Shown one piece after another: positions 3,212 through 6,200 of a stretch of 64,000 bases of DNA. Under the pieces are notes generated by a model. The model saw only the letters and a list, made by a program, of their open reading frames with translations, made no database searches and was not told where the DNA came from. Made by a program: the position numbers and the translations under genes. The DNA comes from Limisphaerales bacterium. Its GTDB lineage: Bacteria > Verrucomicrobiota > Verrucomicrobiia > Limisphaerales > UBA11358. The stretch covers positions 26,144-90,143 of the forward strand of contig PMOA01000148.1 in assembly GCA_003161635.1 (NCBI GenBank), written 5' to 3'. The first letter of the stretch is position 1. The number at the start of each line of letters is the position of its first letter.

Positions 3212-6200
3212 TCACGCCACGACAATGTTCACCAGCTTCTTCGGCACAACAATGACTTTCTTGATCGTCTTGCCGGCGATGAATTGCTGCACTTTTTCCG
3301 AGGCCTTGGCGGCGGCTTCGACCGTGGCGTTATCGGCGTTGGCCGGGACCCGGATGACGTCGCGCAACTTGCCGTTGACCTGCACCGGGATTTCCAGCGT
3401 GTCCTCGACGAGCAGAGCGGGGTCAAACTTGGGCCAGGGTTGATAGCTCAATGAGTCCAAAGTCTCATGTCCAATGTCCAATGTCGCACCACCGTCCGCT
3501 GCCCTGACTTTGGACTTTGGACTTTGGACTTTGGACCACAACTCTTCCGCGATGTGTGGCGCAAAGGGCTGGAGCAAAACCAAAAATTCGCGCAAAACGG
3601 AAACCGGTTTCGTCTCCCACGTTATCGCGTCGTTCACAAAAACCATCATCGCGGATATCGCCGTGTTGAACCGCATCCCGTCGAGGTCTTCTGTGACTTT
3701 CTTGATGCAGGCGTGGAGCGTCTTGAGTTGTGCGGGAGTGGCCGGCACATCCTTGATGGCCGCATTGAGCTTGATCAGTTCCAGCAATTCTTCGCGTCTT
3801 TGCGTCTTTGTTGTTAATGTCTCCGCCTGCTCAAATTCCGTTTCGCTCGCTTCATCCACGAACAAACGCCAGACGCGGCCAAGAAAACGATAAACGCCCT
3901 CGACGCCCTTGGTATTCCACGGCTTCACCATCTCCAGCGGCCCCATGAACATCTCGTAAAGGCGGAACGCGTCCGCGCCGAACTCCACCAGAATGTCGTC
4001 CGGGTTCACCACGTTGCCGCGGGACTTGGACATCTTCTGGCCGTCCTCGCCAAGAATCAGACCTTGATTGACGAGCTTGAAAAACGGTTCGGGCGTTGAA
4101 ACGTGGCCGAGGTCGAACAGCACCTTGTGCCAGAACCGCGCGTAGAGCAGATGCAACACGGCGTGCTCCGTGCCGCCGACGTATAAATCAACTCCTTGAG
4201 TTCTGTAGCCGCCGACGTCAGTCGGCGCATTCTTTTCGGTGGAAGAAGTCAGCGCGGACTGATCCCGCACTGCGGGACGGCTACCCATCCAGTAAGTCTC
4301 CGCTTCACGTCCAACGAACGACCGCGCGTTCTTTGCGTCGAGATAACGCAAGTAATACCAGCAACTGCCGGCCCATTGCGGCATGGTGTTGGTTTCGCGC
4401 ACGGAACCGTCGGGCAGGTTCACCCAATCCTTCGCGCGCGCGAGCGGCGGCTGACCGTCGGGCATGGGTTTGTAATCGTCGAGCTTCGGCGGAAGCACGG
4501 GCAACGCGCTTTCCGGCAAGGCTTCGTGATAAAGATTCCCGCTGGCATCCTTCTTCCAGACAATCGGGAATGGCTCGCCCCAGTACCGTTGCCGGCTGAA
4601 CAGCCAGTCGCGCAACTTGAAGTTGACCGTCTGTTTGCCCAAGCCTTTTGCTTCAAGCCAGGCGGTGATTTTCTTTTTGGCGGCGGCGGTGGGCAGGCCG
4701 TTGAGGGAAACTTCGTTGTTTGCTGAATTTACGGCGAATCCTTCGGCGGAGTCACAAAGTAAACTGCTGGAGAAAACTGGCGTTTCTTTTTCGTTAATTT
4801 GAAAATACTCAACCTTCTCTTGAAGGTCGAAGTAGCCTTTAGCGCTATCAAAAGATTGACTCTTTTTGGGAGTAGTTGTAGCGACGACGGCTTTGATCTG
4901 AAGCTTGAACTTTGTTGCGAATTCAAAATCGCGCTCGTCATGCGCCGGCACGGCCATGATGGCGCCCGTACCGTAACTGGCGAGGACGTAATCGGCTATC
5001 CAGATGGGAATTTTCGGACCGTTGACGGGATTGATGGCGTAAGCGCCGGTGAACACGCCGGTCTTCTCTTTGGCCAATTCTGTGCGCTCCAAGTCGGATT
5101 TTCTAGCAACTTGTTTTCGGTAGTCTTCTATGGCTTTAACTTGCTTTGAAACCTCCTGCTTGTAGAAGCGGTGTTTGCCATAGTCCTGTAGAACACACGC
5201 GGGTGGATTTACATTAGGATTTACTTCAATCAAATCAACACCGCTAGTTTTCGCCTTAGCCAATGCGTCAGCCAGCGTAACCGTCTCTCCACTTCCACCG
5301 CCGAAAATTCGAACTGTGGGTGACGTAATTTGACCGTTGACCCGATAGTTATGGTTCGCAGCAGCAAGAATATTATCAATCAGCCAGTGTTCGGGTGCCA
5401 CAACCATGTATGTCGCGCCAAACAACGTATCAGGCCGAGTTGTGAACACGTCCATCGACAAACGATTCGGACCTGGAATTTCAATTTGGAATGTAACCGT
5501 TGCACCTTCGCTTTTGCCAATCCAATTCCGCTGCATTTCCTTGAGCGAATCACTCCAGTCAATGGTGTTGAGATCGGCGATTAATCGTTCAGCATAACGG
5601 GATATGCGAAGCATCCATTGGCGCATCATTTTTTTGCTGACTTCATAGCCGCCCACTTCGCTTTTGCCGTCTATAACTTCTTCGTTTGCCAACACAGTGC
5701 CAAGCGTTTCACACCACCAAACAGGGGCATCAGCAACATATGCAAGACGATGCTTGTCTATTTCCTTGCGCCTGAATTCAGCTCGTTTTTCTGTGGGGGT
5801 TAGCACATACCCATTCCGCAAGCCTGACACATATTCACCGTATTCTCCTTTTGTCCATTCCCGCTTTGGATTTTCTGACATGACGTCTTCAAGAATTTCA
5901 ATTAATTCAGCCTTGTTGGTATCAGGATTGAACCATGAATTGTAAAGCTTGAGGAAAATCCACTGCGTCCACTTGAAATAACCGGGGTCGGTGGTGGCGA
6001 GTTCGCGCGACCAGTCGTAGCTGAAGCCGAGCGACTGGATCTGCCGCTTGAACGTGGCGATGTTCACCTCGGTGGTCTGGCGCGGATGCTGGCCGGTCTT
6101 GATGGCGTATTGCTCAGCAGGCAGTCCGAACGCGTCCCAACCCATCGGATGCAACACATGAAATCCCTGCGCGCGTTTGTATCGCGCGAGAATATCCGTG

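Follow-up and report, generated by a model that had tools for sequence, protein, structure and literature searches.

An initiation factor IF3 N-terminal domain-like insert in the CP1 editing domain of a leucyl-tRNA synthetase from Verrucomicrobiota

The CP1 editing domain of leucyl-tRNA synthetase (LeuRS) is represented by structures from Thermus thermophilus (1H3N, 2BYT), Escherichia coli (4AQ7, 4ARC) and Streptococcus pneumoniae (4K47), and the insertions known from it are short peptides or lineage-specific extensions that lack any independent family identity. Work from the Wang and Cusack laboratories reportedly shows that such peripheral CP1 insertions exist and can modulate editing. Other aminoacyl-tRNA synthetases carry appended modules, such as the coiled-coil arms of SerRS and ValRS, the Trbp111/EMAPII-like domains and C-Ala, for which binding of tRNA has been demonstrated and which are usually fixed within a lineage. 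To our knowledge bacterial synthetases rarely gain whole foreign domains; we know of no described LeuRS with an IF3 N-domain in its editing domain, and a full-text literature search returned no account of an editing domain that contains a domain of a translation factor. The domain in question (PF05198; PDB 1TIF; approximately residues 11–75 of E. coli IF3) belongs to initiation factor IF3, in which residues R25, Q33 and R66 touch the elbow of the initiator tRNA (PMC9723500). In tRNA-free 30S complexes the N-domain of IF3 is located close to the platform, where it may touch uS11, and residues 63–70 of IF3 are counted among its 16S rRNA-binding residues (PMC5037330).

Here we compare with these systems the leuS gene of a Verrucomicrobia bacterium of soil type, contained in a 64-kb stretch of DNA that we refer to in its entirety as the window. 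The features of the locus are as follows, with the basis of each assignment in brackets.

3212..6454, minus strand: leuS coding sequence (open reading frame list; TIGR00396 match; 100% identity to P0001)
4619..5518, minus strand: CP1 editing domain, from GKSEGA to GKQTVNF, with editing motifs intact (PF13603; PDB alignments; AF2)
5147..5368, minus strand: inserted segment of 74 aa (LAAANHNY...FYKQEVS), residues 363–436 (120 relatives; codon alignment against the insert-free alleles L019 and L020)
5144..5341, minus strand: Pfam IF3_N match, ORF residues 395–460, predicted beta-beta-beta-alpha-beta-beta (profile; tblastn; phmmer; AF2/Foldseek)
5105..5182, minus strand: long helix, P0001 residues 425–450 (DSSP of AF2 models; alignment to E. 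coli IF3)
5084..5101, minus strand: KSDLER motif (conservation among relatives; alignment to KTEIER, residues 290–295, of T. thermophilus)

Counted from its ATG the leuS product has 1080 aa, the mechanically called open reading frame extending further to a TTG at 6523. The protein scores 901.6 bits against the bacterial LeuRS model TIGR00396 (leuS_bact; cut-off 548.4), both class I motifs are legible in its translation (HIGH as LHVGHPEGY and KMSKS as KMSKSRGN), and the HVGH and TTRPDT motifs are intact as well. CP1 is recognized by Pfam PF13603 with 187 bits, the insert splitting the match into two stretches, and it aligns with the LeuRS CP1 structures 4k47 and 1h3n. The TTRPDT and GTG motifs and the region of the catalytic Asp are present and invariant among relatives, which points to an editing-competent domain. 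The window LeuRS is thus canonical in comparison with the known CP1 structures, and its gene is an intact and functional-looking bacterial leuS, in agreement with the original prediction that the LeuRS motifs flanking the insert are undamaged. Elsewhere in the gene there is a perfect 27-nt inverted repeat, one arm of which (4202..4228) lies within the leuS coding sequence while its partner (3182–3208) lies just beyond the stop codon. By way of context, this coding arm shows that leuS tolerates in-frame insertions.

The inserted segment occupies the position at which insert-free alleles have a 3-residue turn, TTP. The turn lies at the tip of CP1's two-helix hairpin, and in the 4k47 alignment the site falls exactly between residues 47 and 48. 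In its location at a surface turn the insert therefore resembles other CP1 insertions, but it differs from them in being a complete, recognizable domain of another translation protein, and in that its site is occupied by other domains in alleles from within the clade. An in-frame IF3_N-like module within the CP1 of an otherwise intact LeuRS is what had originally been proposed, and both the coordinates and the motif string given for it were right, the feature being on the minus strand. The length was less well judged: the proposal allowed about 65 aa between the start of CP1 and KSDLER, and although the insert is real, the spacing from APEH to KSDLER is about 95 residues in the window LeuRS versus 29 in insert-free alleles, a surplus of 71–74 aa.

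Several lines of evidence converge on the identity of this segment, which is almost certainly a captured copy of the N-terminal domain of IF3. The Pfam IF3_N profile (PF05198; gathering cut-off 26.9) bears out the proposed relationship, matching the segment with 49.2 bits (E 6e-13) in the full protein and with 55.1 bits when it is searched alone, over profile positions 1–68 of 70. A tblastn search of the 64-kb window with E. coli IF3 aligns residues 14–85 of the query at 44% identity (E 1e-15) and detects no second IF3-like sequence there, infC included, and in a phmmer search of the PDB the only matches are IF3 chains. Structure prediction likewise gives the expected IF3-N alpha/beta fold: the AF2 model of the insert alone has a pLDDT of 85.7, and Foldseek aligns this model with 1tif (TM 0.83, rmsd 1.9 Å, E 9e-6), all of the best ten PDB matches being bacterial or mitochondrial IF3 or IF3-containing complexes aligned through the N-domain, with nothing else significant. 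As the AF2 model of the full-length LeuRS is weak overall (mean pLDDT 56.7), we take from it only the local confidence of CP1, which is 82–95 across the region including the insert, and the secondary structure. The residues characteristic of the IF3_N family are also in place, in that N16, I19, V24, A42, A46, D52, L53, E55, P62, P63 and C65 (E. coli numbering) are all kept in the window insert, and each of the eleven is conserved in at least 39 of 45 LeuRS inserts, as it is in 148 IF3 representatives.

In family, fold and core residues the insert therefore corresponds to the IF3 N-domain, and in both cases a helix follows. It departs from IF3 in lying inside another enzyme rather than at an N-terminus and in having no IF3_C partner, a Pfam search of the window LeuRS having found none. 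The insert scores 48.9 bits against the infC equivalog model TIGR00168, below its cut-off of 60, and covers only model positions 3–77 of 170. With IF3_C lacking, we can rule out that the insert replaces functions of the IF3 C-domain. An intein or mobile-element origin was likewise set aside, nothing but IF3_N being significant in the segment by Pfam.

In the models, the long helix begins as the linker helix of IF3 and is predicted to run unbroken, and in register, into helix alpha-2 of CP1. Since the alignment to E. coli IF3 reaches residue 85, which is within the linker, the captured part includes the first turns of the linker helix. The insert lies approximately 20 residues upstream of KSDLER, a motif that is invariant or nearly so across all 55 aligned relatives, and the Glu of which we take, assuming the E. 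coli register, to be equivalent to E292 of E. coli LeuRS. In the aminoacylation state E292 forms hydrogen bonds with A73's phosphate and with the 2'-OH of U72 of tRNA-Leu (PMC3664829).

The arrangement is not confined to one assembly. The exact protein of the window (P0001) is encoded by 17 JGI and ENA contigs of up to 397 kb, and among the 120 closest LeuRS clusters the hairpin tip holds an IF3_N insert in 45, no insert in 58, Trp-rich peptides in 13 and an MshEN domain in 4. Thirteen GTDB species genomes carry the IF3_N insert, all of them from Verrucomicrobiota and one named Limisphaerales. MAGs with the insert include CAVWHM01, CAVQOW01, CAVTVR01, CAWBKH01 and DMQW01. A chimera of infC and leuS created during assembly, or a chance similarity, would have to be considered for any metagenome, and this general risk is all that speaks for such an explanation here. 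The insert is present in the same protein on many contigs and, in frame and at an unchanged position, in dozens of relatives that have diverged, so that it is not an assembly artefact, while E-values of 1e-13 to 1e-15 exclude chance; we give this explanation practically no weight. The phyletic distribution that was to be checked thus also speaks for a genuine feature. The junctions are the same in all IF3_N insert types, consistent with one capture event in the ancestry of a Verrucomicrobiota group (subdivision 3 / Limisphaerales).

With the insert alignment as query, a protein search recovered nothing besides two-domain IF3 proteins of the ordinary kind and a single LeuRS fragment. The insert alone matched 2444 of 1.84 billion representatives; the best 150 of these matches are 70–290 aa long, the size range of IF3 or IF3 fragments, except for two longer proteins; no LeuRS-sized representative is present among those best 150 of the 2444. 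The 1319-aa protein P0122, in which eight stretches match, was considered as a candidate array of IF3_N domains and rejected, being a repetitive protein with no Pfam IF3_N and only SdrD_B and sub-threshold matches.

The alternative occupants of the hairpin tip are informative in their own right. The tip is an insertion hot spot: in sister alleles it is empty, holds short inserts rich in Trp, or carries a whole MshEN domain. MshEN (PF05157), which we find in P0047, P0061, P0074 and P0082, shares with the IF3_N insert its point of insertion, its clade and its general character as a small alpha/beta domain on the tip of the hairpin, but its family is an unrelated one, seen at the N-terminal ends of ATPases of type II secretion and type IV pili. 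Reading the MshEN insert of P0047 by eye, we did not see the c-di-GMP-binding RLGxx motif.

Presence of the insert does not follow the rest of the gene. A neighbour-joining tree of LeuRS with the insert masked is star-like and places identical insert types far apart, and we therefore used identity along the gene in its place, which revealed a mosaic structure. There are near-identical leuS genes whose sole difference is a swapped central block, and in two pairs (the window gene and L019; L016 and L020) genes that are 97–100% identical at both ends differ in whether the insert is present. The central block has a GC3 of 41–52% against 70–75% at the ends of the gene. The swapped blocks suggest that the central part has been exchanged between relatives by recombination, and the copies of the insert appear to have diverged into discrete types that were spread or lost through such exchange. 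Because near-identical genes without the insert exist, an essential role for it is excluded.

The same data raise the possibility that the tip is a variable docking or conflict surface, that is, a port for swappable modules that bind lineage-specific partners or help to evade a phage factor or toxin, with discrete types kept by selection within lineages. The insert types are indeed discrete, with 85–97% identity within and 22–69% between types where the enzyme cores are 80–95% identical, and both the apparent exchange of whole central blocks between near-identical genes and the deviating GC3 of these blocks would agree with such a port. However, neither a partner nor a toxin or phage factor is known, and none was detected, a cursory look at the neighbourhood showed no defence genes linked to the locus, and the mosaics could reflect ordinary recombination or, for contigs seen only once, switching between strains during assembly. 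We consider this explanation unlikely.

Another explanation is that the insert is a tolerated passenger, a fragment of infC lodged in a permissive loop, with no function of its own and retained since its misfolding would harm an essential enzyme. The varied occupancy of the site and the existence of near-identical genes with and without the insert are what one would expect of such a passenger, and there are other in-frame, repeat-derived insertions in leuS. The anticodon-binding and C-terminal domains are 100% identical in alleles with and without the insert, so that no compensatory change was needed, and residues on which IF3 function depends have decayed in the inserts (see below). The rates of substitution point the other way. 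For type A, to which the window insert belongs, the dN/dS of the insert is 0.06–0.21 compared with 0.11–0.14 for the whole gene, and for type C it is 0.03–0.11 at a dS of 0.23–0.81, so that the insert (0.03–0.2) is as constrained as the enzyme as a whole or more so. Purifying selection on the insert is thus estimated to be as strong as on the rest of LeuRS, and for this reason pure junk is unlikely, although values this low could stem from nothing more than the need of an essential enzyme not to misfold. Elsewhere in the leuS gene variable segments fall to 15–50% identity, the insert is kept across lineages in which synonymous sites are saturated, and the inserts have gained conserved Lys, Asn or Gln residues at positions where IF3 varies, indicating a new constraint on the surface and not on the core alone. 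On balance a passenger is possible, if somewhat doubtful.

The changes at individual positions bear on what the insert might contact. At the positions with which IF3 touches the tRNA elbow the window insert has R25 as Arg, Q33 as Ser and R66 as Val. Position 66 is Lys or Arg in 139 of 148 IF3 representatives but hydrophobic (I, L, V, M or F) in 40 of the 45 inserts, while position 25 has Arg in 131 of the 148 IF3 representatives and retains it in only 27 of the 45 inserts, though not in every insert type. Because the basic residue at position 66 is lost, an IF3-like contact with the tRNA elbow is unlikely, and since the IF3 C-domain is also lacking we infer that the insert cannot act as initiation factor IF3. 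Helix alpha-1, acidic in IF3, carries instead a conserved pair of Lys residues on its exposed side (ALAKAK), at position 47 (variable or acidic in IF3) in 84% of inserts and at position 45 in 64%; Asn57 and Gln18 are newly conserved as well. The choice first put forward, between an extra contact with tRNA or the ribosome and a merely tolerated domain, is narrowed by these results, as neither the IF3-like elbow contact nor pure junk is likely.

One might still imagine that LeuRS is docked at the 30S platform, near uS11, by its IF3-N head, which would bring the enzyme near tRNAs on their way into or out of the ribosome, for channelling of tRNA or as a link to initiation. The location of the IF3 N-domain at the platform and the contact of residues 63–70 with 16S rRNA (PMC5037330) would allow this, and the inserts retain all three of the polar residues N16, D52 and E55 that are conserved in the family. 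Against such a tether, IF3 is anchored mainly through its linker and C-domain, an anchorage absent here; position 66, hydrophobic in most inserts, falls within the rRNA-contacting segment; K72 is Lys or Arg in only 26 of 45; and close relatives dispense with the insert altogether. A ribosome tether is for these reasons very unlikely.

The explanation that we favour, with a little less than even confidence, is that LeuRS has captured an IF3-N head that would provide an accessory contact with RNA. In the models the insert would be a small globular head on a helix approximately 39 Å long, at the opposite end of which lies KSDLER, the equivalent of which in E. coli LeuRS holds nucleotides 72 and 73 of tRNA-Leu. 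The head may add a dispensable RNA contact, to the acceptor/T arm of tRNA-Leu, and such a contact could tune how tRNA is bound or how its CCA end moves back and forth between the synthetic and the editing site. This particular mechanism is put forward only tentatively, and with low confidence the role could be worded more broadly, as an accessory contact with RNA or with a partner beside the acceptor-end motif. The hints toward tRNA are the proximity to KSDLER in sequence and the Lys pair gained on the exposed helix, and by analogy the insert resembles the appended tRNA-binding modules of other synthetases in being a small module on a helical stalk beside an element that contacts tRNA. Those modules, however, bind tRNA demonstrably and are usually fixed, whereas the insert is polymorphic among close relatives and its RNA binding is putative. 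Other observations weigh against RNA contact: the insert is dispensable, being absent from 58 of the 120 closest relatives; unrelated inserts share the site, and the loop may simply tolerate insertions; the surface residues vary strongly between types (22–69% identity), which would be odd for a binder of a conserved tRNA; and R25 is retained in only 27 of 45 inserts.

A more specific version of the accessory contact, which we think rather improbable, is that the head and the linker helix form a molecular ruler, in which KSDLER would grip nucleotides 72 and 73 while the head, approximately 40–50 Å away, would reach the T-arm or elbow of the tRNA-Leu gripped in this way, or the 30S platform. If so, LeuRS would possess a second, switchable grip through which the tRNA's or the ribosome's state is coupled to charging or proofreading, and interchangeable heads (the IF3_N types and MshEN) would tune this coupling in each lineage.

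Near-identical leuS genes that hold IF3_N, MshEN, short peptides or nothing at the same position constitute a natural experiment on a single loop. They make it possible to ask how an essential enzyme acquires new domains, whether charging or proofreading can be tuned through the CP1 hairpin that touches the acceptor end of the tRNA, and what an isolated IF3-N fold binds when it is off the ribosome, and they mark the tip of CP1 as a permissive site for the engineering of LeuRS.

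By profile HMM the host protein, P0001, scores 901.6 bits with the bacterial leucyl-tRNA synthetase model TIGR00396, whose cut-off is 548.4. The HIGH (LHVGHPEGY), KMSKS and editing motifs, TTRPDT included, are all legible in its translation, so the flanking LeuRS motifs are intact as originally predicted and, judged by its sequence, the protein belongs to the bacterial LeuRS. The features on which the analysis turns are as follows.

3212-6523, minus strand: the long leuS ORF of the ORF listing, inside which the insert lies
6454, minus strand: start ATG of P0001, the publicly called product (1080 aa)
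5147-5368, minus strand: inserted segment of 74 residues, LAAANHNY...FYKQEVS, from codon alignment with insert-free alleles
5144-5341, minus strand: Pfam match to IF3_N (PF05198), ORF residues 395-460, profile positions 1-68 of 70
5084-5101, minus strand: KSDLER, the end of a long helix that begins as the IF3 linker

Directly downstream of leuS, the ORF at 2141-3115 (plus strand) opens with an ArsR-like stretch, and the gene at the matching position in L018, another leuS locus, has Pfam matches to HTH_5 and a SAM-methyltransferase; the neighbours differ at L015-L017, and synteny around leuS is conserved only in part.

The IF3_N profile scores 49.2 bits (E 6e-13) in the whole protein and 55.1 bits for the segment alone, the Pfam gathering cut-off being 26.9. 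The infC equivalog model aligns over just its positions 3-77 of 170 and, at 48.9 bits, falls short of its threshold of 60. A tblastn search of the window with E. coli IF3 (a query sequence validated by 8jsg_A) aligns IF3 residues 14-85 to the insert at 44% identity and finds no second IF3-like match in the 64 kb. Every chain that the segment matches in a PDB sequence search is an IF3, and E. coli IF3 8jsg_A ranks first, over residues 14-85 (E 1.4e-13). Because the infC-model, tblastn and PDB results agree, the original prediction of an IF3_N-like module inside LeuRS is confirmed, and the segment belongs to the IF3_N domain family. The idea that it is IF3 itself was rejected: it shares family membership with IF3 but differs in its host, a LeuRS, and in missing the C-domain, which carries most IF3 functions (PMC9723500).

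The spacing from APEH to KSDLER is 100 residues in P0001 versus 29 in insert-free relatives, and in the codon alignment the insert takes the place of a 3-residue turn, TTP. By alignment its position is precisely between residues 47 and 48 of 4k47, a crystal construct of S. pneumoniae CP1, and between about 271 and 282 of T. thermophilus LeuRS (1h3n), which places it at the tip of the two-helix hairpin where the editing domain starts. The whole-protein AF2 model is poor overall (mean pLDDT 56.7) with CP1 and the insert confident at 82-95, and a separate model of the insert and its flanking helices has pLDDT 85.7. In the predicted structure the insert has the element order of the IF3 N-domain, as anticipated, followed by one unbroken 26-residue helix; the ten best Foldseek matches in the PDB are IF3 entries aligned on the N-domain, 1tif among them (TM 0.83, rmsd 1.9 A, E 9e-6), and there is no significant PDB match other than IF3. 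As the sequence similarity reaches residue 85, within the IF3 linker helix, the captured piece is the N-domain plus the first linker turns, joined in register to CP1 helix alpha-2.

JGI and ENA contigs, 17 in all and up to 397 kb long, carry exactly the same protein, and near-identical copies come from NCBI; the chimeric assembly against which the prediction had been hedged thus falls away, and the insert is no artefact. The distribution of states at the hairpin tip was surveyed in the 120 closest LeuRS clusters (65-100% identical to the window's LeuRS in the best local BLASTP alignment).

Hairpin-tip state among the 120 closest LeuRS clusters
IF3_N-type insert: 45 clusters
no insert: 58 clusters
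Trp-rich inserts of 41-60 aa: 13 clusters
insert of 148-181 aa: 4 clusters

All four of the longest inserts (P0047, P0061, P0074 and P0082, LeuRS residues about 400-520) have precomputed matches to PF05157 (MshEN) at the same insertion point as IF3_N; a Pfam re-scan of three gave scores of 65, 54 and 34 bits, with two of the matches spanning nearly the full profile. When each GTDB species was scanned through a single genome, 13 genomes had the IF3_N insert, all MAGs labelled Verrucomicrobiota, Verrucomicrobiae or Verrucomicrobiales with one Limisphaerales; the search pattern was drawn from the clade's own flank and is hence barely informative on other phyla. Among 1.84 billion cluster representatives, searched without such bias, the 150 that match the insert best include no protein of LeuRS size, and no mention of a LeuRS with this architecture was found in the literature searched. 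Two IF3-like proteins from the representative search, P0121 (185 aa) and P0123 (254 aa), each carry two tandem IF3_N matches totalling 139 and 170 bits respectively, so that now and then the N-domain is duplicated within IF3 itself.

Insert presence does not track overall similarity among the relatives (P0004, with the insert, and P0113, with none, are 94% identical over 865 core columns), because identity along the gene is mosaic.

Window versus L019 (P0007, no insert), ends, aligned codons 0-160 and 740-1186: 97-100% nt identity
Window versus L019, central block, codons 180-680, comprising the whole of CP1 and adjoining regions: 30-75% identity
L016 (insert) versus L020 (none), ends: 5' part at about 90%, most of the 3' half at 98-100%
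L016 versus L020, central block, codons 200-500: 37-85% identity

L016 and L020 share their flanking genes. P0007 has its centre in common with P0279 and P0280, both of which occur on several longer contigs, so that centres of either kind are real; mosaics seen on one contig only may be genuine recombinants or products of assembler strain-switching. The central block of the window's leuS (about 4680-5940) has a GC of 43-50% and GC3 of 41-52%, set against 70-75% GC3 at the gene ends and 56.6% GC for the whole window, and in the other IF3_N alleles examined GC3 of the insert and its surroundings is likewise below that of the ends, as would fit a CP1 block that circulates out of a lineage of lower GC. 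Besides the insert, leuS holds further in-frame, repeat-derived pieces.

3182-3208 and 4202-4228: inverted repeat of 27 nt, perfect, GCGCCGACTGACGTCGGCGGCTACAGA; the 3182-3208 arm is just beyond the leuS stop
3455-3485 and 3506-3536: 31-nt inverted repeat, 84% complementary, of 7-nt tandem units (GACTTTG)n

The 4202-4228 arm is inside the coding sequence, in a lineage-variable segment, and the repeat looks like a small palindromic element inserted in frame; the 31-nt palindrome sits in the 3' variable segment, which is of low AF2 confidence and indel among relatives. Given these pieces together with the mosaic structure, the leuS of this clade has several permissive sites of fast turnover, the CP1 hairpin tip among them.

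The insert is dispensable in close relatives. Selection was gauged by dN/dS (Nei-Gojobori) within two insert types.

Type A (window, L015-L018): insert 0.06-0.21, rest of gene 0.11-0.14
Type C (L003-L006): insert 0.03-0.11, rest of gene 0.09-0.17

Type C inserts are 93-97% identical in amino acids at dS 0.23-0.81; across types identity is just 22-69% and synonymous sites are saturated. The insert is thus under purifying selection similar in strength to what an essential enzyme experiences.

Column by column, 45 inserts and 148 IF3 representatives keep N16, I19, V24, A42, A46, D52, L53, E55, P62, P63 and C65 equally. The residues with which IF3 contacts the initiator-tRNA elbow (R25, Q33 and R66; PMC9723500) are not kept across inserts: position 66 is K/R in 139/148 IF3 versus I/L/V/M/F in 40/45 inserts (V in the window), and position 25 is R in 131/148 versus 27/45, the window retaining R. 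Position 72 is K/R in 142/148 IF3 versus 26/45 inserts. Conversely, Lys at 47 (84% of inserts) and 45 (64%) in the ALAKAK helix, Asn57 (84%) and Gln18 (82%) occupy positions that are variable or acidic in IF3. By this comparison the IF3-type tRNA surface is lost or buried, the key elbow contact being absent, and a new, more basic conserved surface is gained. That the module tethers LeuRS to the ribosome through its IF3_N head is very unlikely, because the 63-70 segment is altered in the inserts and the IF3 N-domain itself barely contacts 16S rRNA (PMC5037330). A surface for a lineage-specific partner or conflict would account for the discrete insert types, and we regard it as rather improbable.

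KSDLER is invariant or nearly so in 55/55 aligned relatives, and its counterpart in T. thermophilus is KTEIER 290-295; the Glu of KSDLER we take to be E292 of E. coli LeuRS. In the aminoacylation state E292 hydrogen-bonds the A73 phosphate and U72 2'-OH of tRNA-Leu (PMC3664829). The head would then lie about 26 helical residues, or about 39 A, from the point touching the top of the acceptor stem, and should the helix follow the acceptor/T arm, the head, having gained a Lys pair, could make an additional contact to the backbone, one that might adjust how tightly tRNA is bound or how the CCA end shuttles. We put this forward as a tentative possibility and rate about equal to it that the module is a tolerated passenger.

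What is new here is a translation-factor domain grafted into the LeuRS editing domain, at a port where sister alleles bear other heads. It is chiefly of value for studying, in a natural setting, how an essential enzyme captures a domain, and it may also offer a new handle on the positioning of tRNA by CP1.
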